A DNA stretch of 64,000 nt from Rickettsiales bacterium (lineage in GTDB: Bacteria > Pseudomonadota > Alphaproteobacteria > Rickettsiales > JAIXRX01), in assembly GCA_965247145.1 (NCBI GenBank), contig CBDFGH010000006.1, forward strand, positions 168,778 to 232,777, given 5' to 3'. Numbering within the stretch: the stretch's first letter is position 1; the number at the start of each line of letters is the position of its first letter. Both the position numbers and the translations under genes were made by a program. A model generated the notes under the pieces. It did not search any database. It saw nothing but the letters and a program-made list of their open reading frames with translations, and was not told the DNA's origin. Shown here piece by piece: positions 4,082 to 58,185 of this stretch.

Positions 4082-4639
4082 CTAGCGCGCCATGGAGGAT
4101 TGTAGCGAGGCCGGGGCTTCCGGCTGCAAGCGCGATTCTGCGAGCTGGCCCCAGCGGTTGCCCGCGCTATTGGCCGGGTGGTCGGGGTAGTGGTTGAGTT
4201 GACCAGCCTGACGCAACGCTGCGGTTTCTGCCCGCACATCCGCCGTGGCAACTTGCAAAGCCGAAGCTTGGCGGGCTTCTTTGCGGTTTTGGTAGGCTTT
4301 GTAGCCGGTGAATACCGCCGTACCTGCGATCAGGAGAGACCAACCGGGATGGTTGGTAGCAAACTTCGTGGCGAGCCTCAGCGGTTGTACGACGAGATGC
4401 CCAGCAAAGCGCCCCATTTTCCCAAGCACACCGCCCGCAGCGCCGCCAGCGCCGCTGATGAATTCCCAGGATTTACCCGGCGCCGCACTTGCAAATGTCT
4501 TCAGGGCCGACCATTGTTCCGTCAACGGTGCGCTGATACCCACGCTATTGGCGGCATCAATGGCCGTATTCGTCGCCACCGCTTCGGGGCTGGGAGCGAC
4601 GGCTGCACGGCTGAACATTCTAGTGACCCAGTTTGCCAT
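4082..4639 (-). CDS. hypothetical protein (185 aa, one central hydrophobic segment)
   Basis: ORF with coding-like codon usage and hydrophobic WSLLIAGTAVFTGY segment. Followed by a strong terminator. No family recognised. Confidence 0.6.
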   Translation of the reverse strand: MANWVTRMFSRAAVAPSPEAVATNTAIDAANSVGISAPLTEQWSALKTFASAAPGKSWEFISGAGGAAGGVLGKMGRFAGHLVVQPLRLATKFATNHPGWSLLIAGTAVFTGYKAYQNRKEARQASALQVATADVRAETAALRQAGQLNHYPDHPANSAGNRWGQLAESRLQPEAPASLQSSMAR

Positions 4640-4652
4640 GATCTAGCTCCCT

Positions 4653-5219
4653 CTACGCGACGGCGTTGGATTGGGAAACACCGGCCGTGCGGCGGGCGTT
4701 GATCAGATTCTGCTGTTGCTGCCCGACCATGGGAATGATCGGTTGGCTGTTTTGCAGCTGCTGCAGCGCGGCGTTATATTCCTGCTTGGCCTGCGCATAT
4801 TCCTCGCGGCCATTCGCTGCCGCCAGTTGCGGATTGCCCGCCGACATGCCATGCGCCTGCATCTGAATGGCCGCGCGCGCATCCGCTGCTTTGCTCGGGG
4901 CGTTGACGCCGCCAATAGCGGCACCGGCAGCGGTGGCTGTACCGACGATGGGACCAAAAGTTGACACCCCCGCCACAACGGCCATGACTCCACCGACGAT
5001 GGTAGAAGCAACGGCGCTGCCTGCACCGAACACACTTGCGGCCAATGCGAAAAAGCCCAAACCGCTTGCGGCAACCACGGCGGCAAAAATCGCCAAGCCG
5101 ATCAGCGCACCTTTGGTGCCACCCCGCCAACCACCGCCGACCACATCGCTGCCTACGGTGAATGCTTGTTGCAGCACGCCCGGTTTTTGAAATTGAACGT
5201 CGCCCGTCTCGGTGGCCAT
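4653..5219 (-). CDS. hypothetical membrane protein (188 aa, Gly/Ala-rich bilobed hydrophobic domain)
   Basis: Longest of several overlapping ORFs, with GAGGA 9 nt upstream of the ATG. Has a ~55-aa hydrophobic block ALIGLAIFAAVVAASGLGFFALAASVF...IVGGVMAVVAGVSTFGPIVG followed by a Gln-rich tail. Confidence 0.55.
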   Translation of the reverse strand: MATETGDVQFQKPGVLQQAFTVGSDVVGGGWRGGTKGALIGLAIFAAVVAASGLGFFALAASVFGAGSAVASTIVGGVMAVVAGVSTFGPIVGTATAAGAAIGGVNAPSKAADARAAIQMQAHGMSAGNPQLAAANGREEYAQAKQEYNAALQQLQNSQPIIPMVGQQQQNLINARRTAGVSQSNAVA

Positions 5220-5299
5220 AATCCGGCATCCTCGGCGCGATCGCGCCTTTTTAGGTTTTTCCTACCCTAACTGTACCCCAGTGCCGCAAGCGCTTAAAG

Positions 5300-5782
5300 T
5301 TAAGATTGTATGACAGCGTCGGACGAAAGCGAGGGCACGACAAGGGCGCGTTCACCCAAAGGCCCATCTCCCGCCGCTTGCCGTGCACGCAGCAATGTCA
5401 GCAGGTCGGATGCGCCGTAGATATGGGCATGCACGAAGGCGCGCGACTCGCGGTAGGATGCAGGAAGAACGGGGATATGGGGCGCAGGCGGCGGCGTCCA
5501 ATCGCTTTCGGCGGCCAGGGTCATGCCGCCTTGCGGCATCAGCCGCCATTCGGTGTGCGGTGTGCCGCGCATCAACAACCAGGCACGACCGAACCATGCA
5601 CCCAGCGCCATATTCGCACCGAATGCCAATCCCAGCATCGGCGGAGAGGAGATCTGCGCCCAGACGGCTTGACACAAAGCCAGCAAAGCCCCGACCGACA
5701 AACCGGCCATGATCGGCCCATACCGACGCAGCCAGCGCAAACGTCGCAAAGCGCGCCGTTTTTTTAAGCGATGCTCTTTCAT
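5300..5782 (-). CDS. hypothetical membrane protein (~160 aa; alternative start 5863)
   Basis: Basic N-terminus KKRRALRRLRWLRR followed by two predicted TM segments. The ORF-track start at 5863 gives 187 aa. No family recognised. Confidence 0.5.
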   Translation of the reverse strand: MKEHRLKKRRALRRLRWLRRYGPIMAGLSVGALLALCQAVWAQISSPPMLGLAFGANMALGAWFGRAWLLMRGTPHTEWRLMPQGGMTLAAESDWTPPPAPHIPVLPASYRESRAFVHAHIYGASDLLTLLRARQAAGDGPLGERALVVPSLSSDAVIQS

Positions 5783-5933
5783 AACCAACCCCGCGTTCTG
5801 AACGGAATCCTGAATTATCCTGCGGCTCTTGACGGCCGGTGCATGTTTTCCATGCGCGACCATGCCTACACGAATTCAGTTTAAAAATCATCTAAAATTA
5901 AACTGTATTAAGCCAACGCAGGAAATCAGCCAC

Positions 5934-5963
5934 AAAAATGCCCGGGGCTGCAGCTCCGGGCAT
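5934..5963 (-). terminator. intrinsic terminator after the 609-aa ORF
   Basis: 8-bp stem atgcccgg / ccgggcat (5938-5963), followed on the minus strand by TTTTTGTGG. Confidence 0.75.
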
Positions 5964-6003
5964 GGTGTGCGGCCACGTAGAACGGGCCCGCGAAGACTGG
6001 ATA

Positions 6004-7833
6004 TCAGCCCAGCACGGTTTGCGCGCTCTTGGGCCCGCTCTGCATCGGTGTCGTTTTCGGTACTGTGCTGGTCGCTTGCGCCAAGCTCACATTGCCCTCA
6101 TTCTGCGAGAGCATGCCAAGCGATGCCTGTAACTTGGCCAGATCGACCGGGCTTGTGGCGGATTTGTCCGATTCGATCAGGCTGCCCCCCAGGGAAACCA
6201 CCCGCGTGTTGATCGCCGCCGCCACCGCTTCCTGCGCTTGGGGCGTGACGGATGCGGGAATGCGCGATTCGGCGGGCGCGTTCTGCGCCGTGCGCACGGC
6301 CGGCTGAGCCGGATCTTCCTCGTGCATGACGGCTGCGCCGTTACTGTTTACACCACGCTGCATCGGGTGCTGCTTGGCATATACGACAGCAGCAGCCCGC
6401 ACGTCAGCGTTGAACTCTGCTTCACTAAGACCACCGTTAAAACGCGGATGGCTTTTGATGTTTGCCGTAGGATGGTTGGAGAGAAACTCGGTATAGGTGT
6501 ATTTTTCGATCTTGGTGTTGGAAGTTCCGCCGCTCGCTTTATACTGCTCGCGCATATCGAGAATAACGGCTTTGCCCAATGCATCATAGGCCTGCTTCTC
6601 TGTTTTCGATTCATACAGATCAGCTACGATTTGCGCATCGCGCATCTGTAAATTGCCCACAGCACCGTTATTCGGTCTGGCAGGGGCTGCGTTCGCCGCA
6701 GGGCTAGCAGGGGCGACCGCTGCCGGTGGCGTTGGCGTTGGCGGTGTCGGTGTCGAACTCTGCGCTTGCGGCGCAACGGTGCCAGTCGATTGTGAAGCAG
6801 CACTTTCTTGCGGAGCGCTCGCGGCCGTAAAAACTTCCTGCGCCCAAGGAGCAAAGGTATAGGCGTTCCAGCCGTTGGCTTGGGCGAATACTTGAATGTT
6901 GCTGGCATTGAGCGGGTTCGGCGCGTCCAGGCGCGTTTCACCACGACTATACCGGCAAAGCTGTACGTAATCTTCTACGATATGTTTAAACGCCGTTTGT
7001 GCCATAATTGCGGCATCTGAGCTCTTTGGCTGTGTGGGATCGCCGTATTTAAACCAATTTCCGGCATTGTTTTTATATTCTTGTGCATGTTGGGCCATAT
7101 TAGCGGCTGCGGTGTTGCGGCGAGAAATCACTACGGTGAATGGCAGTTCACCAATGGCATTATCGGAAGTGTTGGCGCTCTTTTCGCGGAGATCGTCCAA
7201 TTCTTGCTTCTGTGTCTTAATCTGCGTTTTCACCGCAGCCAGACTTTCGGCATACTCCATCACCGCTTCGTAATCACCCGGCGTGATTTTGATTTTGGTT
7301 TTGGCCGTGAATTCATTTGGATCTATTTCGTCTCGGTTTAGCAAGCATGCTGTGAAATAAGAAGTCTGGGATTTCGTAAGCCCAGTCAGTCGGCGCTTGT
7401 AAAACTGGTCCAGATTCTCTTGATAGCGAAGCTGCTCTTGCTGGTAGATATCTGTCACATCATTGTTGATACGGGCGTTGGCTTTGTTTGTTTCACCGTC
7501 CAATATGACATTGGCCGCTCTGTTGGCCACACCACGAACGATATTGGTAGCTTCGCCAGGAAATGCATTGGCGAGAATCCCTGCCACTTCTTCAACGCCT
7601 ACTCCAATCGCCAATTGTTTGACACCACTTCCACTGAAAGCCGGGGAAGTCTGGGAATAATTCAATTGGCCATCTTTGAACGTATTCTTATCAAGCTTGC
7701 TTAAGCTGAACCCATATTTGCGGGATTTTTTACCGGCAAGAATGGCGAACGGATTTTCATCATCCACCACATGGGATTGGGATTCGGGATTTGTCAGCTC
7801 GACCATGGGGATATCCGCTTTGATAAAGTACAT
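6004..7833 (-). CDS. hypothetical large protein (609 aa) with Pro/Thr/Ala linker
   Basis: Long ORF with central low-complexity linker SSTPTPPTPTPPAAVAPASPAANAAPARP separating two globular halves. Has its own terminator. No signal peptide or known domain seen. Confidence 0.75.
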   Translation of the reverse strand: MYFIKADIPMVELTNPESQSHVVDDENPFAILAGKKSRKYGFSLSKLDKNTFKDGQLNYSQTSPAFSGSGVKQLAIGVGVEEVAGILANAFPGEATNIVRGVANRAANVILDGETNKANARINNDVTDIYQQEQLRYQENLDQFYKRRLTGLTKSQTSYFTACLLNRDEIDPNEFTAKTKIKITPGDYEAVMEYAESLAAVKTQIKTQKQELDDLREKSANTSDNAIGELPFTVVISRRNTAAANMAQHAQEYKNNAGNWFKYGDPTQPKSSDAAIMAQTAFKHIVEDYVQLCRYSRGETRLDAPNPLNASNIQVFAQANGWNAYTFAPWAQEVFTAASAPQESAASQSTGTVAPQAQSSTPTPPTPTPPAAVAPASPAANAAPARPNNGAVGNLQMRDAQIVADLYESKTEKQAYDALGKAVILDMREQYKASGGTSNTKIEKYTYTEFLSNHPTANIKSHPRFNGGLSEAEFNADVRAAAVVYAKQHPMQRGVNSNGAAVMHEEDPAQPAVRTAQNAPAESRIPASVTPQAQEAVAAAINTRVVSLGGSLIESDKSATSPVDLAKLQASLGMLSQNEGNVSLAQATSTVPKTTPMQSGPKSAQTVLG

Positions 7834-47977: not shown

Positions 47978-49648
47978 TCATTCGGAAATCTTGGGACCGT
48001 TCTCCGAGATACCTTGCTGCACATTCGAAACGACACCGCCGATTTTATCATTGAGTATGTCGTTCGGGGATTCGCCGGGCGTGCTGCGCACTTCTCCGGC
48101 GGCGCTTTTCAATGTTTCCATCATCGATTCGCCTTGTTTGGCGCCTTCCCCCATGGCTCCCGTGGCCATCTTCATCATGGCGCTGCCCGCGCCGCTGACG
48201 CTGCCTGCGGCACGCTGTGCCATACCCATCGGGTCGATGCCGTTGCGCTGGGCCATGGCGGCAAGTTCCTGGCCGGAAGTGGTGATGCTGACATTCCCAC
48301 CCGAAAGTTCGCTGGCGATCTGCTGGACATAACTGCTGTAGCGCCAGGACAGCGAGGAAAGCAGCACGAACATAAGCACGTCCACCATGTGAATCTGCAT
48401 GTTCGCCTTCTGCCAAAGGTCGGTGGCGATGGGAATGGGACTGTTGCCGCCACGGTTGCTGACATAGCCGAGCACGTCGTTTGCCGTAGCGTGATGAGCA
48501 AATGAATCCGAAACCGGAAAGAACCACCAAATCTGCGCGATTTCCATATCCCAAAACGGTCCATAGCACACATTGATTTCAAGAATTGGTTTGAGCACAC
48601 CCGCAATCATCGTCATGAAGAATCCGAGGAAGGCGAAGACGAAGACGGGTTGAAGGGCGAAGCTGAGGCAAAGGTTGAACCAGCCGTCGAACAATCGCCG
48701 GGTCTGGTCGAACAACAGACAGACGATGAAGATCGGGGAAATGGCGAAGAGCACGAATAGACCGATCAGGGCCTTGACGTAGGTAGCCAGCGCCCCGAGC
48801 GCCGCCAGCAGGAAAAAGAAGGTGCCCTGAATCAGGAAGAGCATCAGCACGAATCCGCTCAAACCCGCGAACATCATGCTGAGAATGACCATGATAAAGC
48901 GGATATCCATGACCATCTGCAACGGCACGATGAGAAAGTTCAGCGGGGCGTTGGTGAGCATGGTGTTTGGCAGCTGGTGCAGCCCCACATTCAAACCTCT
49001 CGGCAATGCATTCAGACTACCGACGGTGGCGGTGTAATAGGCGGTAATCAATTCGTTCATGCCGCCGATGAAGAAGCTCTGGATGATGATGCTCACCCCG
49101 CCCCCCACGATCAGGTAATACATGATCGCGATCTTCAATATACGGATGAAGGCTTCGTACCATGTGATGTCGACCAGATTGAACAGCACCATGATGCCGA
49201 ATACGACGAGATACAGCATCACCGTCGCATTCATCGCAGCAACAAAACCGGTATCGTGGGTCAGGGTTCGGAAGAGGTCTTTCCACCGCGGGCTGGAAGC
49301 GCTGGAACCGATGAACATGGTATTGATCTTGTCAAACACCGCGTCGAGCGTCGCGGCGACTTGCATGAGATTGCGCGAACCTTCGGGCGGGCCGGAGACG
49401 TCTGTCATCGAAACATATTGCGCGCATTCCGGCGGTGGGCTCGCGCCAACGCATTCTGGGTGAAAATCTCTTGACTGCAATGTCGTTGCAGGAGCCGCTT
49501 TTCCAAACGAACAAAACGGACCCAACCGATCGGTGGCGGAAACCTGGGCATGCGCCGTGTGCGGCGCAATCGCCACCAACCACATCAGAAGGACATACAG
49601 GCAAATAGGTGAATATCTGCGGAAGGGATAAGAGAGCATAAGCATCAT
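47978..49648 (-). CDS. virB6: VirB6/TrbL-family T4SS inner-membrane protein, paralog 3
   Basis: 556 aa with signal peptide ...APHTAHA and a polytopic core bearing FDQTRRLFDGWFNLCLSFALQP, shared with the two upstream paralogs. Hydrophilic Gly/Met-rich tail. ATGA overlap with the upstream stop. Confidence 0.8.
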   Translation of the reverse strand: MMLMLSYPFRRYSPICLYVLLMWLVAIAPHTAHAQVSATDRLGPFCSFGKAAPATTLQSRDFHPECVGASPPPECAQYVSMTDVSGPPEGSRNLMQVAATLDAVFDKINTMFIGSSASSPRWKDLFRTLTHDTGFVAAMNATVMLYLVVFGIMVLFNLVDITWYEAFIRILKIAIMYYLIVGGGVSIIIQSFFIGGMNELITAYYTATVGSLNALPRGLNVGLHQLPNTMLTNAPLNFLIVPLQMVMDIRFIMVILSMMFAGLSGFVLMLFLIQGTFFFLLAALGALATYVKALIGLFVLFAISPIFIVCLLFDQTRRLFDGWFNLCLSFALQPVFVFAFLGFFMTMIAGVLKPILEINVCYGPFWDMEIAQIWWFFPVSDSFAHHATANDVLGYVSNRGGNSPIPIATDLWQKANMQIHMVDVLMFVLLSSLSWRYSSYVQQIASELSGGNVSITTSGQELAAMAQRNGIDPMGMAQRAAGSVSGAGSAMMKMATGAMGEGAKQGESMMETLKSAAGEVRSTPGESPNDILNDKIGGVVSNVQQGISENGPKISE

Positions 49649-51714
49649 TTTTTAACTTCCGGTTTGGCGGCGCTTTGAATGCGGCTGAGAATGGCGCCGA
49701 GATCGGTATTTTCCACAATGGCTTCCCGCCCGCTGGCCACCAGGGCTCCGCCCCCACGTCGCACGAAATTGCTGACATTGTCGACGGGATTGAAAGTGGA
49801 GCCGCCGCGCTTTTCCGCGCGTGTCCAGCGCGCTTCGGTACTACCGAGAAAGCTTTCGATACGGTCCGCGAACGGCACCCCGCTGTCGCCGCTCACCGGC
49901 GCGCTGCGCCCGCCGCGCGAAAGCAGGCTTGCCATGCCGCCGGTAATGGCAATGCCGCCACTGCCGACAATGGAACGCGCGATCTGCGGCACGGCCTGAT
50001 TGAGCGAGACGAAAAGAAATATCATCAGAAAGGCGCTGAATACCGAGCCACTGAGCTTCATCAGAAACCATTCCTGAAAATTGGCGTCCACCCTTCCAGG
50101 AATCAACGTAATGTAATGCGGATTCGGCCCACCGCTGGCGACCCATTTATGCGTCTGCGGATCGAAGGCGCCGCCCACCATGCCCGTAGCACGAAACGCC
50201 TGCAATATCTGCGGGGTCAACCCGTCGTTTGCCGGAGTGGCGGGAATCTCGCCCTGTACCTTTCTAAGGAACCGATCGTAGGTGCCGTTGATGCGCAGAT
50301 CGATGATCGGCATCCAGATCGGATCGAGCGAGACACTGCTCAAGCTTTGCAACGAGCGGATCATCGTGCCGACATCGCTGCTGGCGGTGAAGGCATCCAA
50401 ATATTTTTTGGCCGTTGCGAGTCCGCCCGCCACATCCCGTGTTATTTGTTTGCCTACGATATCTGCGATATTGGATAGCTCTCTCGAGCTCAAAATATCG
50501 AATAACACCACGCCCTCGTCTCGTACCATGTTGCGCAACACGATGCGGCGCATTTCCGATTGGACTTTCAAATCAGCATTCCTGATGCGATCAAAGCCCA
50601 GCACCTCGTAGATGCTGTAGACGACCCCAGCATTCCTTGTCCAATTGCTCGGTGGAGATCCTGTGCTGCCGGCGATGAAGTAGCTCGCGCCGAAAATACT
50701 CACCGACATGAAAATGACGAGAATAAACGGCTGAAAGATGATGCCGATATAGATGAACAGCCATTTGGTGAAATAGCTCATGGTGCGCCGGAACATGAGC
50801 GTGGGTATGACCAGCGGCACGAAAATGAGAATGACCGCGATCGCCAGATAGGCATGCATGATGTAGAAAATACAGCGCATGACATAAAGTATGATGGTAA
50901 ACATCAGCATGATCGTGCCGAAGAGAATGGCGATGCCCAGCGGCCCGCTCATCGCCGTGGCCATGATGAGCGACACGATGCCCGTCCAGAACGCCACACC
51001 CGCCACCATGCCGAACAGCATGCCGAGAATGCAATCCAGCGCGTTCCATAAGCGCACTTCCTGCTTGACGTCCTGCATGGTAACCGATGTTTGCCCGTTG
51101 GGGCTTGTGGTGGTGATAGGGATATGCAGCTCGATGCTACTGCGGTTGAGCCCACCAGCAGGCCCGGGTAGAGTGGGATCAAGTGAATTGTTGCAGCGTA
51201 TGAACAATTGCGCGGTGCCTTCCTGCGCCATATTGCCAAACAGGGTCGCGCCCCAATCCATCAACTCGTCCTGCACCGCCACGGCAATGCGCCCGATATT
51301 GAGGCTGCTCGCCCCGGTGGAAAGGCTCGTCAGCATCACCATCACGAAAGCGGCTTTGATCAACAGCAGCAACCCCTCGCCCTTCGGCGAGCGCACGCCG
51401 CCCATAGTCATCCGCACCCCGAACAACACGATGGAGAGAAAAATCACCGCGCCACCGATGGGCAGCATGAAGCGTGCGATGGGTGCCACCACGGTGGCTG
51501 CCGCCGTATAGGTCATCACCCGCATACAAGCCACCGCACGTGCACTGAGCGTGCCGGCCAGCTCGGGCACTCTCATGCATTCGGACTGCGAAATGTCTGC
51601 CAGATCGATAACGTAGCCGAGTGGGTCTAAGGCCAAAGCGGGGGTTGCCACACCGATCATGCCGCAGCAGAAAACCGCGATCATGAGGAAAAAGAGGATG
51701 CGGGGCTGCTGCAT
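49645..51714 (-). CDS. virB6: VirB6/TrbL-family T4SS inner-membrane protein, paralog 2
   Basis: 689 aa with signal peptide ...GVATPALA and core motif FRRTMSYFTKWLFIYIGIIFQP, plus a large hydrophilic C-terminal region. Starts 2 nt after the upstream stop. Confidence 0.8.
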   Translation of the reverse strand: MQQPRILFFLMIAVFCCGMIGVATPALALDPLGYVIDLADISQSECMRVPELAGTLSARAVACMRVMTYTAAATVVAPIARFMLPIGGAVIFLSIVLFGVRMTMGGVRSPKGEGLLLLIKAAFVMVMLTSLSTGASSLNIGRIAVAVQDELMDWGATLFGNMAQEGTAQLFIRCNNSLDPTLPGPAGGLNRSSIELHIPITTTSPNGQTSVTMQDVKQEVRLWNALDCILGMLFGMVAGVAFWTGIVSLIMATAMSGPLGIAILFGTIMLMFTIILYVMRCIFYIMHAYLAIAVILIFVPLVIPTLMFRRTMSYFTKWLFIYIGIIFQPFILVIFMSVSIFGASYFIAGSTGSPPSNWTRNAGVVYSIYEVLGFDRIRNADLKVQSEMRRIVLRNMVRDEGVVLFDILSSRELSNIADIVGKQITRDVAGGLATAKKYLDAFTASSDVGTMIRSLQSLSSVSLDPIWMPIIDLRINGTYDRFLRKVQGEIPATPANDGLTPQILQAFRATGMVGGAFDPQTHKWVASGGPNPHYITLIPGRVDANFQEWFLMKLSGSVFSAFLMIFLFVSLNQAVPQIARSIVGSGGIAITGGMASLLSRGGRSAPVSGDSGVPFADRIESFLGSTEARWTRAEKRGGSTFNPVDNVSNFVRRGGGALVASGREAIVENTDLGAILSRIQSAAKPEVKK

Positions 51715-51716
51715 AC

Positions 51717-53432
51717 CTACCCCTTCCCGCCGAATTTGCTGAAAACATCGGCCAATCCCTGCTGGGCTTGCCCCATCGAACCTTCCGAGCCGCGTAGGCC
51801 ACCCTCGATGCCGCGATTCAGGCTGCTGACCCCGGAAAGTGCGGTTTTCCCAAGATCACCGCCCATGCGATTGACCTTGTTGATGTCCCCGCTATCCACC
51901 GCTGCTGCCGCCAGCAGGTTCACGAATTCCGGCAGCTGACGTAGAAAATGATAGAGTACGAAGAGGATGATGAAGGCGGTGAACATCGCCAGAAAGGGCC
52001 TTGCCATGGCCTGCGCGGTCCGCACGTCGTAGGATTGGGTGGAAATGCTCGGCCAACTGTAGCCGTTGTTTTTCTGAATCAGCGCCTGGCTTGCACTACG
52101 GAACTGGGTTAGCAGGTAATCCAACACCTCGCCGGAAATAGGCAGGCTCTTGAGTTCAGATTCGGTCGAGGCACTGGCAAGGGTGGTGAGTTCGACGATG
52201 AAACGGTTGATCGAACGCTCCCCGATGCGGTTGAACGCCTTCTGGATTTGCGGCACCGTGCATTCGGACTCGCCATAGGCCTTGACGTTGGTATGCGACA
52301 ATTCATTGGCCGCTTGGTTCAACGCCGCCACTACCGAATATTTCTTCAGGCAGACCACATTTTCGAACACGGTGACGAACATCATCAAAAACAGGCACAG
52401 TAATATGGGCTGCATGGTGAAACCCACCAACATGCCGAACCAGCGCGTGAAATAATCACGGGTTTTCTGAAAGAAAATGCATGCCCAGGCCAGCGGTGCG
52501 ATCATCATCAACAGTATGATCGATATATGTGCGAGGATCATGATGCTGATCGAAATCTCCATCACCACGCCCAACGCATAGATCATGCCCCCGAATGCCG
52601 CAGCCGCGCCTTTGGCCAGATAACCGGAGAAGGCGTTTTTCATCATGACCCCGATCGGGGAGTTCGCGGAATTCTGTCCGACTTCGATGATGGATTGGGC
52701 GGCGCAATCGAGCTTGGCCCAGGGCACCAGGAAAATGTAATTGGGCCCGATGCTGGCCCCGGTGTAGGCGCTGCACAGAGAGCTGGGAATTTTCAGCGCG
52801 ATGGTGCCCGACCAATTGTTCAGCGTTTCGATCAGCGACTCGTAAAGCATGGGTATGGCCGCCACTGCCGCCAGCAAAATACCGATCTTCATGAAAATGA
52901 CGAAGATGCCGGAGAGAAATTCATTATGCCTTCCCAGCGCTACTTTCACACCCAGCATCACCAGCGCCAATAAAGAAACGGCGAGGATGATGTCGGTGAA
53001 AAGATTCGAGGTGGCGGTAATGGCAATCCGGCCGAAATAAATGATGGCCCCCGGCATATTGGCTGCGCCGTCGCCCGGCTGAGTTCCCAATAGACAACCG
53101 ACGATGCGCAGGGTGAGATAGAAATTTTCGCGGCCTGTTCCTGTGCCGTTGCCGGGTACATTCTGCCATTGGGCATGATTGACCGTTCTGAATTTTTTGA
53201 TGCCTTCGCTTTCGCCGCAGAAACGCGTTGATCCTATGCCCGACCACATGTTCGACAGACTGGTGAAGCTGGCATTCGGCCGCTGCTGTGCTTCCACCGA
53301 GAGCTTGTTGGGGAAAAAAGCGGAGGAAAGGATGAAGCAGAGAAACGTTCCGAAAAGAACGGCAAGGATGTGCCGCACCACCAACGGCCGTGCCGATCGC
53401 GCCAAACCGGCCGAAACGCTTCCCGCGCTCAT
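51717..53432 (-). CDS. virB6: VirB6/TrbL-family T4SS inner-membrane protein, paralog 1
   Basis: Core motif FQKTRDYFTRWFGMLVGFTMQP. ATG 53432 forms an ATGA overlap with the virB4 stop; the ORF-track start 53468 would overlap virB4 by 40 nt. Confidence 0.8.
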   Translation of the reverse strand: MSAGSVSAGLARSARPLVVRHILAVLFGTFLCFILSSAFFPNKLSVEAQQRPNASFTSLSNMWSGIGSTRFCGESEGIKKFRTVNHAQWQNVPGNGTGTGRENFYLTLRIVGCLLGTQPGDGAANMPGAIIYFGRIAITATSNLFTDIILAVSLLALVMLGVKVALGRHNEFLSGIFVIFMKIGILLAAVAAIPMLYESLIETLNNWSGTIALKIPSSLCSAYTGASIGPNYIFLVPWAKLDCAAQSIIEVGQNSANSPIGVMMKNAFSGYLAKGAAAAFGGMIYALGVVMEISISIMILAHISIILLMMIAPLAWACIFFQKTRDYFTRWFGMLVGFTMQPILLCLFLMMFVTVFENVVCLKKYSVVAALNQAANELSHTNVKAYGESECTVPQIQKAFNRIGERSINRFIVELTTLASASTESELKSLPISGEVLDYLLTQFRSASQALIQKNNGYSWPSISTQSYDVRTAQAMARPFLAMFTAFIILFVLYHFLRQLPEFVNLLAAAAVDSGDINKVNRMGGDLGKTALSGVSSLNRGIEGGLRGSEGSMGQAQQGLADVFSKFGGKG

Positions 53433-55828
53433 AGACGCCGCGCGCGTTCGAAGAAGACGGGCAGCCACTGGTCGGGATCGTCGCCCACTTTGGCGCGGAT
53501 GTCGTCGAGCAGGCGCACGGTATCGGCGCGCGCGGAAAGCACATTCACCGCATCCGTCATCCCGCTTAAGTCGATGCGGGCCACCACCATGTCTTTGTTC
53601 TGCTTCACCAGGAAGAAGCGGGAGCCGGGGTCGGTGCTTTTGATCAGGTTGAATTCCCGTTCGCTCAGCATGAAGGCGCTTCGATACACGCTGGTGGCTT
53701 TCGGGTTGGGCAGAAAAATCTGCGTGGCGGTCTGCTGGATCAGCGTGTCCGAGATCGCGCTGCTCGCCGCATCTTCGACCGATTGGGTGGCGAAGATCAC
53801 GAAAGCGTTCAGTTTCCGCAAGGTTTTCAGCCAGTCCTTGATCTTGCTCGCGAAGACAGAGTTATCGATCAGCGCCCAGGCTTCGTCCAGCACCAGCATG
53901 GTGGGCGTGCCGTCGAGCGAGAGGTTAATCTTGTGGAAGAGATACAGCAGCACCGGCGCCAGCGTGACTTTGTTGGAAAGCACCGGGCCCATTTCGAAAC
54001 CGAAATTGGCATGGGTGCTGAAATCCAGCGAGTCGAAGGGATTGTCAAACAATTTGGCGTATTGCCCGTCCGAATGCCACATGCGCAGGCGGCCCGCCAG
54101 CGAGCCCGGCCCCTCTAAGCCCAGGAAGGGCGCGATGTTGCGCAGCATGCGGTCTTTGCGGGCGAGCTTGAAATTGCCGTTCACCGCTTCGGTGATGAGC
54201 GCCATGTCTTCCGCCGTCAGCGGCTCGCCATACACCGTCACCAGCGTGCGCATCCATTCGCTGATGAAATTGCGATTCTCGTTGGTATCCGGCAGTTGCA
54301 GCGGGTTGAAGTTGCAGCGCTCGCCGGGTTCGATGATGTTGTAGGAGCCGTGGATGGCGCGGATGAAGATTTCGGCGCCGCGATCTTTGTCGAAGAAGAA
54401 CAGGCGGCAATTGAATTTCTGCGCCTGCGCGCAGAGGAAGTTCATCAGCACCGTTTTGCCCGCACCCGTGGGCCCGATGATGGTGGTGTGGCCCACGTCG
54501 CGTGCGTGGAAATTGAAATAATAGGGCGTGCCGGAAGTCGTATCCAGCACGCTCACCGCATCCCCCCAATGGTTGCCCGCAATGCGACCGGTGGGGTAAT
54601 TGTGCAGGCTCGCCATGCCCGCCACATTCAGGCTGTGGATTTTGGATTTGCGCGCCACATAGTCGAAATTCGCCGGCAGCTGCGACCAGAAGGCCTGCTC
54701 CAAGATCATCTTCTCCCGCGTCGGGTTGAAGCCGATATTGACCATTTCGGCCACTGCCATCGAAAGCGAGGATTCCATCGATTTTAGATCGTCTTCGATC
54801 ACCATCACCGTCATCTGGTGCTGCCCGAAGGCGACCGCCCCACCGGTGGCGAGATCGAGCGCATCCGAGATTTCGATGACCTGGCTGATCGCTTTATCCT
54901 GGCTCGCCATCTTGCGGCGCTGCTCGGTCTGCATGCTCTGGATCGAGGTGGCGCGGTTGATGAAGATGTAGGAATGGGTCACGATGAGTTCGCAGGGCAA
55001 TTGCAGAAACCCGTCCAGCATCCCGGCGGCGGTGGCGCTGGGATATTCCCGCACCGAAAGCATCGCGCCGTAGCGCGTTTTGTTCAGGCCGCGAAATTCG
55101 ATGGCACGGCTGCCGAAATAGATGCGCTGATAGGGCAGATAATGCGAGATGTCGGTCATCGGCACATGCATCTGCTTGCCGTCGCCGCCATTGATGAGCT
55201 TGCTCAGAAATTCCAATGGCTCGGAAACGGGGCCGTTTTCGGTGTCGATCGTGGTCAGCAATTCCGGGCTGTAATCGCGCAGGCTGGCCATCACGCGGTT
55301 CACCGCATCCGCCAGATCCTTGAAGGATTCCTGCATGCCCATGGCACGCTGCTGCTCGTTCACCCCGGCTGCGAGTTTGTTGAAATAATATTCCAGCTTG
55401 GCGAAACCGGCCTTGTCCGCCTTGCGCACCACGGTGATGTAGAGTTCGTTGATGAAGGCCTGTTTCGCGGTGCGCTTGGCCTTCCATTGCTCGTTGAGCA
55501 TATTGGCGAAACCGCGGCGGAATTTGCCCTTGGGGAAGCCCGGCTTGCGGCGGCGGATGGTGTGGAACCACAATGCGAAGTCGCCGTCCGACATGCTTTT
55601 CAGCAGCGAATTGCGCACCAGTTTCTTCATGTCCACGTCTTCGTCGTCCGCCGTTTCGAAAGCGAAACCGCTGACGCGGATGGTCTGCATCATCTCCCCG
55701 TTCTTGGTGATGATGGTCTCGCGGTCCCAATGATAATGGTAGGGAATGAACTCGGCGGCGGCCACCTCATGGGCGCTCTGCCACGATTGTGCCGTCTTGC
55801 GGATGGAGAATTGCTTGTAACTGCGCAT
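53429..55828 (-). CDS. virB4: type IV secretion system ATPase VirB4
   Basis: 799 aa with N-terminal FIPYHYHWDRETIITKNGEMMQTIRVSGFAFE, Walker A IIGPTGAGKT and Walker B MLVLDEAW. Confidence 0.93.
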   Translation of the reverse strand: MRSYKQFSIRKTAQSWQSAHEVAAAEFIPYHYHWDRETIITKNGEMMQTIRVSGFAFETADDEDVDMKKLVRNSLLKSMSDGDFALWFHTIRRRKPGFPKGKFRRGFANMLNEQWKAKRTAKQAFINELYITVVRKADKAGFAKLEYYFNKLAAGVNEQQRAMGMQESFKDLADAVNRVMASLRDYSPELLTTIDTENGPVSEPLEFLSKLINGGDGKQMHVPMTDISHYLPYQRIYFGSRAIEFRGLNKTRYGAMLSVREYPSATAAGMLDGFLQLPCELIVTHSYIFINRATSIQSMQTEQRRKMASQDKAISQVIEISDALDLATGGAVAFGQHQMTVMVIEDDLKSMESSLSMAVAEMVNIGFNPTREKMILEQAFWSQLPANFDYVARKSKIHSLNVAGMASLHNYPTGRIAGNHWGDAVSVLDTTSGTPYYFNFHARDVGHTTIIGPTGAGKTVLMNFLCAQAQKFNCRLFFFDKDRGAEIFIRAIHGSYNIIEPGERCNFNPLQLPDTNENRNFISEWMRTLVTVYGEPLTAEDMALITEAVNGNFKLARKDRMLRNIAPFLGLEGPGSLAGRLRMWHSDGQYAKLFDNPFDSLDFSTHANFGFEMGPVLSNKVTLAPVLLYLFHKINLSLDGTPTMLVLDEAWALIDNSVFASKIKDWLKTLRKLNAFVIFATQSVEDAASSAISDTLIQQTATQIFLPNPKATSVYRSAFMLSEREFNLIKSTDPGSRFFLVKQNKDMVVARIDLSGMTDAVNVLSARADTVRLLDDIRAKVGDDPDQWLPVFFERARRL

Positions 55829-55874: not shown

Positions 55875-56171
55875 CTAGAACAGATCGTAGGAATTCGTGC
55901 CGCCATGATAGCGGCGATTGACGCAACGCATGCCCTTGCTCATTCGCAGCATGACCAGTTCCAGCGCGCGCGGTTCTTTGCGACATACGAGAAAAGCGAA
56001 AGCGTGCAGGATGGGGAATACGACGCCGAGATAAATGAAATTCTTGGTATTGATGAAGGTCAACAGACAGATCATGCTGTTGAAGATGAAGAACATGTAG
56101 CTGACGCCACCAACCATGGTCGGACGGGTGAGGCCTTGAAAGAGCGGATCGACTTGCAAACGACCGGACAT
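55875..56171 (-). CDS. virB3: type IV secretion system protein VirB3
   Basis: 98 aa with DPLFQGLTRPTMVGGVSY followed by a hydrophobic hairpin. Immediately upstream of virB4. Confidence 0.88.
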   Translation of the reverse strand: MSGRLQVDPLFQGLTRPTMVGGVSYMFFIFNSMICLLTFINTKNFIYLGVVFPILHAFAFLVCRKEPRALELVMLRMSKGMRCVNRRYHGGTNSYDLF

Positions 56172-56180
56172 GATATTTCC

Positions 56181-56435
56181 TTACAGTTTCTGACTTTGAT
56201 GATCGGGCGCGGAAAGGCGCTTCGCATCGTGCCGCGTAGCAAAAAAACCAATCATATGCCCGATGGGGAAAAGGACGGACAGAAAGATAAAATTTCTAAA
56301 GAACAAGAATAGGGCTAGGCACAACAGCGAATTGATTAAAAAATAACGGTAACGCACACCGCCGACAAGCACCGGCCCAAGCACTGATTCATTGCCTGAT
56401 GCGCGCTTTGCTGTTTCGATTTTACCACCAGCCAT
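56181..56435 (-). CDS. VirB3-like paralog (84 aa)
   Basis: Ungapped hand alignment to the adjacent VirB3 core gives 24 identities over 55 residues (P.VGGV.Y..F..NS..C....F....NFI.L.V.FPI.H...F...R). Lies 9 nt upstream of virB3. Confidence 0.7.
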   Translation of the reverse strand: MAGGKIETAKRASGNESVLGPVLVGGVRYRYFLINSLLCLALFLFFRNFIFLSVLFPIGHMIGFFATRHDAKRLSAPDHQSQKL

Positions 56436-56916
56436 TGTCGTCCTTCTTGTCGGATTTCACCACTGTGCCATCCTTATTATAGAAGTTATTAATAAATTGT
56501 TGCGTCATGGCGGCGGCTTGCTGTGCTTGGGCAAGCTTCAGTGCGGCGGCTGCAGGCGTCCCATTGGCACCATTCAGCATTTTCCGCACTTCTTCGCGTT
56601 TCTTTTCCCGCTGTTTGATTGTTTTGTTGGCTTTGTCGATGGTGGCTTTGGTCTGAGAGGAAATCATCGCCTGCACCAGCTTCTTGGCTTTGCCCTGCAT
56701 GACGGGTTCGCCCGATTCGTCCACCACGTCAAGGCGCTTGGAAAGCATCTTCGCCTGAATCTCCGCCGTTTTGCGCGCGGTCATCAGCGTGTAGCGGTCG
56801 TCGGCGTTCATCTTCAGCAGCTTTTGTTTGTCGGCCGCGCTGCCGCCGGAATTTTTGTTCAGAATGCTGCCGCCGCCGCTTTTTCCGCCACTGCCGCCAC
56901 CCATCGAATACCGCAT
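56422..56916 (-). CDS. hypothetical Gly-rich / Lys-rich coiled-coil protein, first gene of the T4SS operon (orf164)
   Basis: Start chosen at ATG 56916 (AGGAG 6 nt upstream); the ORF-track start 57045 collides with the divergent gene. GGGSGGKSGGGS N-terminus, K/Q/A-rich middle, C-terminus ...KKDDNGWW*. Overlaps the virB3-like ORF by 14 nt. Confidence 0.55.
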   Translation of the reverse strand: MRYSMGGGSGGKSGGGSILNKNSGGSAADKQKLLKMNADDRYTLMTARKTAEIQAKMLSKRLDVVDESGEPVMQGKAKKLVQAMISSQTKATIDKANKTIKQREKKREEVRKMLNGANGTPAAAALKLAQAQQAAAMTQQFINNFYNKDGTVVKSDKKDDNGWW

Positions 56917-57043: not shown

Positions 57044-57631
57044 ATGCAACAGGAAAACCCGGAAAATCCACCGCTTCGTTCGTTCGGTTATCAACGGCTC
57101 GGGCTGTTGATCGCGGCATCCATGGTGGCGCTGCTGGCGATTCTCTTCGCGCCGCGCCCCATCATGCGCGACCGCCGCGACCCTGCACCCATCGCCCGCG
57201 CGCAGGAAGGCTTGGAAAAGCACACTTTCACGCTCACCCGCCAGGATGGGCGTGTGTTGCCTTTCACCCTCGAAATCGCAGCCACCGAGCGGCAGCAGGA
57301 AATCGGGCTGATGTTTCGCACCCAGTTGGCGGAAAACGAAGGCATGCTTTTCCCCTACCCGGATGACGCGCCGCGCATGATGTGGATGAAAAATACGCTG
57401 ATTCCGCTCGATATGCTCTTTTTCGATGGGGAAGGACGCCTCGTCTCGGTCATCACCCGCGCACAGCCGGAATCGGAGACCATTTTGGAATCGGTCGCTC
57501 CCGCGCGTCAGGTGCTGGAATTGCGGGCCGGTACGGTCGAAGCCTACGGCCTCGCGGTGGGTGATCGTTTGCGGGAAACCAGTGCAGCCCCCGGCAGCGT
57601 GCCCGCCGAAGCGCAGCCGAAGACGCACTAG
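57044..57631 (+). CDS. DUF192 domain protein
   Basis: CAGGAG SD. N-terminal TM, then GMLFPYPDDAPRMMWMKNTLIPLDMLFFDGEGRLVSV (DUF192 pattern). Confidence 0.8.
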   Translation: MQQENPENPPLRSFGYQRLGLLIAASMVALLAILFAPRPIMRDRRDPAPIARAQEGLEKHTFTLTRQDGRVLPFTLEIAATERQQEIGLMFRTQLAENEGMLFPYPDDAPRMMWMKNTLIPLDMLFFDGEGRLVSVITRAQPESETILESVAPARQVLELRAGTVEAYGLAVGDRLRETSAAPGSVPAEAQPKTH

Positions 57632-57633
57632 CC

Positions 57634-58185
57634 ATGTCCTTCCGCCGGTTCTTCTTACTGCTGCTCGCCCTGCCCTGCCTTGCGGCGGCCACCCCGTTTC
57701 TTTTCCGCCAAACCGAAATCACCATCCTCGCCCTCGGGCCGAAGCCCGGCAGCGTCGCCGCGCCTGCGGGGGCCGAAGGGAAAAACCCGCCCGCGCAGCC
57801 CATTGCGCCCACGCCGCGGCAGTTTCAGTTGAAAGCGCAGATGCGCCCGGCCTCGGCCCTGCTGCAGAAAGATCTCTTCAGCGTCGATCCTTTCGTGCAT
57901 ACCAGCGCGCATCTCTTCGTCTTCGACACGCCGAGTCTGACCGGGTTTCAAGCGCCCGCCATCCAGAAGCCGGTGGATATTCTGGCCATCAACCAGAACG
58001 GCATCATTCTGGAGATTATTCCCCAGGCCGTGCCCGCCCATCTCGACCCCAGCCAATATTCCGTGGAAGAACCCGTGCGCGCCCTGCTTTTCCTGCCGCG
58101 CGGCAGCGTGGACGCCAATGGATTAAGACCGGGGGACCGCGTGCTCAACGCCATCTTTGCGCGTCCACCGGAAAAAAGGAACTAA
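57634..58185 (+). CDS. DUF192-like paralog (degenerate)
   Basis: Signal peptide MSFRRFFLLLLALPCLAAA. HLFVFDTP...KPVDILAINQNGIILEI... parallels the DUF192 core of the upstream gene. Starts 2 nt after the upstream stop. Confidence 0.6.
   Translation: MSFRRFFLLLLALPCLAAATPFLFRQTEITILALGPKPGSVAAPAGAEGKNPPAQPIAPTPRQFQLKAQMRPASALLQKDLFSVDPFVHTSAHLFVFDTPSLTGFQAPAIQKPVDILAINQNGIILEIIPQAVPAHLDPSQYSVEEPVRALLFLPRGSVDANGLRPGDRVLNAIFARPPEKRN

Follow-up and report, generated by a model that had tools for sequence, protein, structure and literature searches.

The window analysed here is a 64,000-nucleotide stretch of DNA from a Rickettsiales bacterium (contig CBDFGH010000006.1, positions 168,778 to 232,777), which carries part of an rvh-type type IV secretion system (T4SS). 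In this system, an open reading frame (ORF) of 84 residues, hereafter S, lies directly upstream of the canonical virB3 gene and encodes a trimmed, divergent VirB3-type protein. The reading to which we give about even credence is that S is a young and weakly constrained duplicate of virB3, translated by coupling with its neighbours, and at most a dispensable membrane accessory or modulator.

Homology to VirB3 and trimming

Both ORFs were found on the minus strand where a preliminary description of this DNA had placed them (Table 1). In a single BLASTP comparison, S aligned with the neighbouring VirB3 as one gapless block, with 24 of 55 residues identical and 35 of 55 positive (E = 1e-16), which reproduced both the identities counted in that description and its list of shared motifs (VGGV, NS, C, NFI, L, V, FPI and H). 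As judged from these sequences, the similarity is far above what chance would give. Profile comparison also bore out the proposed kinship: S matched the Pfam VirB3 family (PF05101) with 29.0 bits (E 1.4e-6, profile positions 12–64 of 84), above the gathering cut-off of 23.9 bits, and the canonical copy did so with 85.1 bits over profile positions 3–84. Against PRK13899, the NCBIfam equivalog of rickettsial-type VirB3, S reached 26 bits, below the cut-off of 74, and the canonical copy 114.6 bits. An exhaustive phmmer search with S among 1.84 billion representative proteins returned six matches at E ≤ 1e-3 (best 1.2e-10), exclusively VirB3-type.

The residues invariant in the family (G26, V27, N35, F43 and H60, from a 13-sequence alignment) are all present in S. 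Alignment with the canonical copy and 11 other VirB3-type proteins confirmed that S is devoid of the DPLFQGL.RP lead-in and of the KEPRA.EL...NSYD.F tail, as the preliminary description had noticed. The conserved N-terminal motifs of VirB3 are '(G/A/T)L(S/T)RP' and 'GV' (Gillespie et al. 2009, PMC2653234). S keeps 'GV' (G26, V27), but the 'L(S/T)RP' lead-in with its DPLF is missing, and ..ESVLGP.. is found instead. At the other end, S stops 13 residues past the aligned core (9 past the gapless BLASTP block) in unrelated sequence, and the canonical copy is about 27 residues longer. By profile, S should be regarded as a real VirB3-derived paralog, but the name 'VirB3' itself should not be given to it, because the equivalog threshold was failed, the lead-in and tail are missing, and S is not adjacent to virB4; both lie in the same operon, yet the canonical virB3 stands between them.

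S comprises a polar N-terminal end (residues 1–21), a hydrophobic hairpin of two helices (about 22–66) and a short basic C-terminal end. The AlphaFold2 (AF2) model is a helical hairpin with helices at residues 29–46 and 50–75 and a core predicted local distance difference test score (pLDDT) of about 90 (88–94), and the hydropathy profile likewise displays two hydrophobic helices, which a two-residue loop separates. Lysine and arginine outnumber aspartate and glutamate at both ends (3 vs 2 at the N-terminal end, 4 vs 2 at the C-terminal end), a pattern matching that of the canonical copy, and S is predicted to sit in the inner membrane with both ends cytoplasmic, like VirB3. Comparison of the model with the PDB by Foldseek produced no match with an E value lower than 6, which is what one would expect of a helical hairpin with nothing attached; in sequence searches of the PDB, the VirB3 profile reached TrwM (7O41_C) at E = 0.17 only, and S alone found nothing meaningful.

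Distribution, reading frame and evolutionary rate

Orthologs of S were detected in three other lineages, designated L050, L051 and L006/L007, always in an identical operon slot (upstream gene, S, virB3, virB4, virB6). One of the six phmmer matches is such an ortholog: P0001, of 94 residues and 50% identical to S, is encoded on the contigs L006/L007 (L006 being GCA_965189445.1), where the order is two DUF192 genes, upstream gene, S, virB3, virB4. The loci L050, L051 and L052 were found by searching with the gene upstream of S, and the S proteins of the first two have 79 and 70 residues, respectively. Over the first 338 residues of VirB4, identity to the window amounts to 97% for L050, 88% for L051, 84% for L006 and 78% for L052. 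The last of these, a 2.3-Mb contig, has no S: just 56 nt lead from the upstream gene to virB3, in a syntenic arrangement (SpoT-PdxJ-AcpS...DUF192x2, upstream gene, virB3, virB4, virB6x3, CarD).

Among more distant relatives (4 genome and 36 metagenome loci, with VirB4 41–70% identical), each locus possesses exactly one VirB3-like ORF and no S; in about 35 of the 40, the sequence extends 300 nt or more beyond virB3 on its upstream side, which is enough to judge. At the locus L024 (positions 512–667), a hydrophobic ORF of 51 residues stops 27 nt short of virB3; it bears no recognisable resemblance to VirB3 and could be a spurious ORF. S, used alone as the query of a word-indexed search for homologs, gave no match, exact-sequence look-ups of S, the canonical VirB3 and the upstream-gene homolog P0010 gave no record, and none of the 454 pattern matches from a metagenome scan with S-derived peptide patterns was confirmed. 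In the sequences surveyed, S is thus restricted to a single small clade of Rickettsiales-like alphaproteobacteria, uncultured and of high GC content, and is not a general feature of these systems, being seen neither in L052 nor in the 35 or so judgeable loci. High GC content, housekeeping neighbours and an rvh-type islet are consistent with the basal, free-living-like Rickettsiales of Schön et al. (PMC9352585). That virB3 is normally single agrees with the papers on rvh systems (PMC2653234, PMC4676284), and a phrase search of the literature found no virB3 duplication.

With regard to its junctions, S begins within the last codons of the upstream gene. The sequence AAT GGC TGG TGG TAA (NGWW*) closes that gene, and one base later ATG GCT GGT GGT (MAGG) opens S, an overlap also present in L006 and L051. 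In L050, the ancestral ATG of S, located within the AAT GGC of the upstream gene, has become ATA, and a new in-frame ATG has appeared two codons upstream through a change from GAC to GAT that leaves the protein of the upstream gene unaltered (L050 2995–3010 vs window 56422–56441). At the other end of S, the ribosome-binding site of virB3, TAAGGAAA, overlaps the TAA stop codon of S. We infer from this arrangement that the 14-nt overlap is a translational-coupling junction, and S would be translated by coupling, beginning as it does where the upstream gene stops and ending in the ribosome-binding site of virB3. Scans around the operon start and inside the operon yielded no promoter- or terminator-like site above shuffled expectation.

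The rates of nonsynonymous (dN) and synonymous (dS) substitution set S apart from its neighbours. Between the window and L050, amino acid identity and dN are 0.97 and 0.023 for the first 338 residues of VirB4, 0.93 and 0.041 for VirB3, and 0.81 and 0.151 for the upstream gene, vs 0.36 and 0.73 for S. Across all pairs, the dN of S ranges from 0.61 to 1.01; set against virB3, it is 0.61–0.88 vs 0.04–0.12, and the nonsynonymous rate of S is about 18–30 times that of virB3 and virB4. The canonical VirB3 of the window is 76–93% identical to those of L050, L051, L006 and L052, with a virB3 dN/dS of 0.03–0.09 for the first three and of 0.19 for L052. GC content at third codon positions (GC3) is 0.47–0.62 in S, and 0.68–0.82 in the neighbouring genes. 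With the Pfam VirB3 profile, the L006 ortholog scores 20.2 bits, below the cut-off, and those of L050 and L051 give no match. In L051, 13 codons of helix 1 have been deleted and G26, V27, N35 and H60 are lost; this protein has no Pfam or NCBIfam match, and its 12.7 bits with a custom local VirB3 profile are not significant. On these comparisons S appears very weakly constrained, because of its high dN, its low GC3, the lost Pfam signal, and the deletion and loss of invariant residues in L051.

The frame has nonetheless been maintained. No in-frame stop occurs in S in any of the four lineages, and the other five frames at the same place contain 0–8 stops per sequence, 1 of the 20 being stop-free (a reverse frame of L051). 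Every alignment gap in S has a length divisible by three, apart from a pair in L050 (14 and 40 nt) that together make 54 nt. Under simulated neutral substitution, before indels, the frame stayed open in 5–54% of runs per lineage, a range that depends on starting sequence and branch length. The five invariant residues are kept in the window, L006 and L050. Between the window and L050, where all five are conserved, 19 of 49 core residues are identical (hypergeometric P = 0.006); between the window and L006, 28 of 49 are, and the concentration on invariant residues has P = 0.05. The dN/dS of S is about 0.35 on its own dS, which is saturated, and the hydrophobic pattern of two helices persists even in the S protein of L051. 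We read these patterns as pointing to a translated hairpin peptide that weak purifying selection maintains in most lineages and that is decaying in L051.

Possible role and origin of S

In the T4SS of R388, where each machine has six copies of the central VirB4, VirB3 has two transmembrane (TM) helices; it wraps the N-terminal domain of this VirB4, with 1:1 binding, and its TM segments touch VirB6 (PMC9259494). A 'VirB2 recruitment site' formed by the TM segments of VirB3 and VirB6 has also been proposed (PMC12624023). Reduced to a membrane hairpin of two helices, with the cytoplasmic lead-in at the N-terminal end and the tail at the C-terminal end both lost, S could still make VirB3-type helix contacts with VirB6, VirB10 and VirB2 within the membrane, but would probably be unable to clamp the cytoplasmic N-terminal domain of VirB4, because both flanking cytoplasmic segments are gone. 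It would then be at most an accessory or modulator of the inner-membrane platform, drifting to loss in at least one lineage. A dispensable accessory seems the most likely role because only the membrane part remains, the distribution is narrow and the rate is high. The divergent tandem VirB3 paralog of the preliminary description thus stands, but the functions suggested for it find no support in a gene that is clade-restricted, accumulates nonsynonymous changes about 18–30 times faster than virB3 and has lost invariant residues in L051. In particular, for a stoichiometric subunit, the narrow distribution, the fast rate and the erosion in L051 argue against an essential role.

As for the origin of S, in the ancestor of the small clade a copy of virB3 would have taken a place between virB3 itself and the older gene ahead of it in the operon. 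Tandem duplication in place is the most likely origin on present sequences, and the simplest, because S adjoins virB3, L052 has no S, the 'VGGV' motif is common to both and alignment scores favour the VirB3 of the clade. 'VGGV' occurs in S and in the canonical VirB3 of the clade, but in only 2 of 37 canonical VirB3 proteins surveyed, and S scores 110–138 against the VirB3 of the clade vs a median of about 90 against other canonical VirB3 proteins. A recent gene conversion between S and virB3 was considered and rejected: nucleotide identity is 49% (29% at third positions), the longest identical run is 9 nt, and the VirB3 closest to S is not consistently that of the same genome.

The searches also uncovered orphan VirB3-like proteins, referred to here as E-type (Table 1). 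They share with S a VirB3 hairpin core (MGVPY..NFIVLFF..H.IGY in these proteins) followed by a short basic C-terminal end, and like S they have neither the DPLF..RP lead-in nor the KEPR..NSYD.F tail. They differ from S by a helical N-terminal extension of 65–95 residues, by a location among housekeeping genes (behind peptidase M3, pth, nuoF or Mla genes, where 10 kb of surrounding sequence contain no gene of a T4SS), and by better mutual conservation, being 33–55% identical among themselves. That the upstream gene and S represent a split E-type protein was rejected, as hhalign alignments of the upstream gene with E-type proteins had a probability of 0.2%.

Several observations weigh against S being a young duplicate under selection as a peptide. 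The dN of S (0.73) compares with dS values of 0.53–1.25 in neighbouring genes and is compatible with near-neutral evolution, and the frame may have been kept open so that ribosomes can pass on to virB3 (coupling or polarity), rather than for the sake of the peptide. All the sequences are metagenome-derived, and S is known from sequence alone. In neighbour-joining trees of a 50-column core, S joined the E-type proteins in 85 of 200 bootstraps vs its own neighbours in 40 of 200, and S carries 'H.IGF', where the canonical VirB3 of the clade, including that of L052, has 'HA.AF' or 'HFLAM'. By these alignments S is evolving near the neutral rate, in a handful of metagenomic lineages. In the main rival reading, clearly less probable in our opinion but to be taken seriously, S would be a non-functional, decaying relic of virB3 whose peptide is idle in the secretion system, and whose frame has stayed open only through its shortness, or through the need for ribosomes to traverse it if virB3 and virB4 are to remain coupled and polarity is to be avoided. 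A dN that exceeds those of virB3 and virB4 by a factor of 18–30 and is comparable in magnitude with the dS of the neighbours would be expected of such a relic, as would a GC3 falling toward non-coding values, the L051 copy stripped of four invariant residues and 13 helix-1 codons and without a significant VirB3 profile match, and a lineage, L052, that works without any S; moreover, the probability that a neutrally evolving frame stays open is not negligible in a given lineage (0.05–0.54). Less easily explained by it are the frame kept open in four of four lineages with a net indel length that is always a multiple of three, the clustering of identities on VirB3-invariant residues (P = 0.006 and 0.05), the two-helix pattern surviving even in L051, and the replacement start codon that arose in L050.

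Two other proposals seem to us much less probable than a relic. S could belong to an older family of tail-less VirB3-like hairpins, the E-type, rather than be a recent local duplicate; this family would be a second VirB3, for example one that pairs in the membrane with a second VirB4 paralog or with an expanded VirB6 set, and its gene would have moved next to virB3 in this clade with loss of the N-terminal extension. We consider this improbable. The shared absence of lead-in and tail speaks for it, together with 'P.LV' and 'H.IG[FY]' common to both, scores of S against E-type proteins (108–124) similar to those against the VirB3 of the clade, the grouping in 85 of 200 bootstraps, and the conservation of the E-type genes in housekeeping contexts such as those of scattered rvh genes. 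However, bootstrap support is below 50% on 50 columns, where long-branch attraction is likely, 'VGGV' ties S to the local VirB3, and duplication in place accounts more simply for a gene that stands in tandem with virB3 and is missing from the syntenic L052; S also has no N-terminal extension, and the upstream gene is not homologous to that of the E-type proteins. The remaining proposal, made in the preliminary description, is that S replaces a missing VirB2 pilin-like component. In its favour, virB2 occupies the slot just upstream of virB3 in classical virB operons, and S, small and with two hydrophobic helices, lies directly upstream of virB3. This we hold to be very unlikely indeed: the sole significant profile match of S is VirB3, with no TrbC/VirB2 match at E ≤ 1, its polar and charged N-terminal end has no hydrophobic, signal-peptide-like segment, its identity to VirB3 runs throughout the hairpin, and L052 has no gene in this slot. 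The absence of virB2 from the locus is moreover uninformative, because rvh virB2 normally sits in a separate islet (PMC2653234), and is thus expected here.

Operon setting, related systems and significance

On the minus strand, the operon runs from the upstream gene through S, virB3, virB4 and three VirB6/TrbL-like genes to a CarD-like gene (Table 1); the virB3-virB4-virB6x3-CarD order is the rvh-type 'islet A' architecture. The middle VirB6-like gene is a weak TrbL match, below the gathering score of 25.9 bits, compared with about 54 bits for its neighbours, and is a divergent VirB6 paralog typical of rvh islets. The DUF192 pair forms the upstream operon boundary and serves as a synteny anchor, since it flanks the operon also in L006, L050 and L052.

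Table 1. Coordinates and supporting evidence for S, its neighbours in the window and the E-type proteins
Feature	Coordinates	Strand	Size	Evidence or remarks
S, trimmed VirB3 paralog	56181..56435	minus	84 aa	ATG start; ORF, Pfam, BLASTP, AF2, orthologs
Canonical virB3	55875..56171	minus	98 aa	ATG start; DPLFQGLTRP lead-in, two-TM core, KEPRALEL...NSYDLF tail
virB4	53429..55828	minus	799 aa	Pfam CagE_TrbE_VirB 163 bits, P-loop_TraG
VirB6/TrbL-like gene 1	53468..51717	minus		Pfam TrbL 53.6 bits
VirB6/TrbL-like gene 2	51714..49645	minus		Pfam TrbL 21.8 bits
VirB6/TrbL-like gene 3	49648..47978	minus		Pfam TrbL 54.7 bits
Upstream operon gene	56422..56916	minus	about 164 aa	From the MRYSM start used by orthologs; frame open to 57045
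Overlap of upstream gene end and S start	56422..56435	minus	14 nt	Sequence
Spacer between S stop and virB3 ATG	56172..56180	minus	9 nt	Sequence
DUF192 gene pair	57044..58185	plus		Divergently transcribed; Pfam 108.9 and 29.4 bits
E-type proteins P0003, P0005, P0007, P0008	L008 8001-8480; L009 973-1440; L049 1175-1573; L046 10001-10492 (also L047, L048)		159, 155, 132, 163 aa	Orphan VirB3-like proteins

The upstream gene is conserved, specific to the clade and the first of the virB3 operon. Its product has a Gly-rich N-terminal end, Lys-rich predicted helices and an invariant ...GWW* end, and the homologs are P0010-P0014. No match was found in Pfam, NCBIfam or PDB folds; its model has a pLDDT of 66, and the Foldseek matches are helical and non-significant. 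In the loci of its homologs, this gene is always directly 5' of S or virB3, and it must be older than S because it is present in L052, which has no S; it is absent 5' of virB3 in the 40 more distant loci. In the L006 ortholog, the F[LI]KKFY..D motif is duplicated. Elsewhere in the window (4082–7833, minus strand), four consecutive ORFs of 185, 188, 187 and 609 residues, without Pfam match at 1e-5, adjoin SpoU-methylase and leuA genes; the 188-residue one is Gly/Ala-rich with long hydrophobic stretches, and that of 609 residues contains low-complexity Pro/Ala/Gln-rich regions.

Among known proteins, the canonical VirB3 (PF05101; RvhB3, PRK13899; TrwM of R388, PDB 7O41) resembles S in its homologous two-helix hairpin with invariant G-V, N, F and H, its small size, its location in a virB3-virB4-virB6 operon and the predicted cytoplasmic position of both ends. 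Unlike it, S is devoid of the (G/A/T)L(S/T)RP lead-in and of the C-terminal tail of about 27 residues, reaches 26 vs 74 bits with PRK13899, evolves about 18 times faster than the adjoining copy and is separated from virB4 by the true virB3. The closest conceptual relatives of S are the Rvh-II paralogs (RvhB4-II, RvhB8-II and RvhB9-II; Gillespie et al. 2015, PMC4676284), which are likewise second copies of T4SS scaffold components, trimmed or atypical and markedly faster-evolving than the -I copies. However, they stem from ancient duplications, are retained without exception in derived Rickettsiales and lie away from their -I partners, whereas S was found in four lineages, in tandem with its parent and eroding in one. 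The rvh components known to be duplicated do not include VirB3 (PMC4676284). Gram-positive systems of the MPF-FA class (TcpD/TcpE of pCW3; Tn916, ICEBs1 and ICESt3; CDS13/CDS15 of mycoplasma integrative and conjugative elements (ICEs); PMC12857230) also have two small two-TM proteins side by side upstream of virB4, like S and virB3. These pairs, however, are conserved across the whole class, with at least TcpD and TcpE both essential for transfer, and belong to monoderm conjugation systems; they are recognised by their topology, not by sequence, and are not known to be mutual sequence paralogs.

The E-type orphans may be a more promising lead than S towards a genuine 'second VirB3'. That S and the E-type proteins together form an unrecognised class of 'tail-less VirB3' hairpins ('RvhB3-II') in basal, high-GC Rickettsiales-like bacteria seems a shade less probable again than an E-type origin of S. 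If true, such a class would dock in the inner-membrane platform by the expanded VirB6 paralogs, or anchor a second VirB4 paralog, and would represent a fifth duplicated component of the rvh system.

Under the favoured reading of S as a young duplicate, the picture of how the machine works is unchanged, and the evidence suggests that S is dispensable. The part of VirB3 that survives without the cytoplasmic flanks, presumed to bind VirB4, is the hairpin with G-V, N, F and H. The rvh systems are known for trimmed, fast-evolving second copies of scaffold components, and S adds VirB3 to such duplications. With the parent gene adjoining, a sister genome without the copy and four lineages at different degrees of erosion, the locus would offer an early-stage duplicate, and thereby a small natural experiment on how T4SS paralogs arise and are then lost or recruited.

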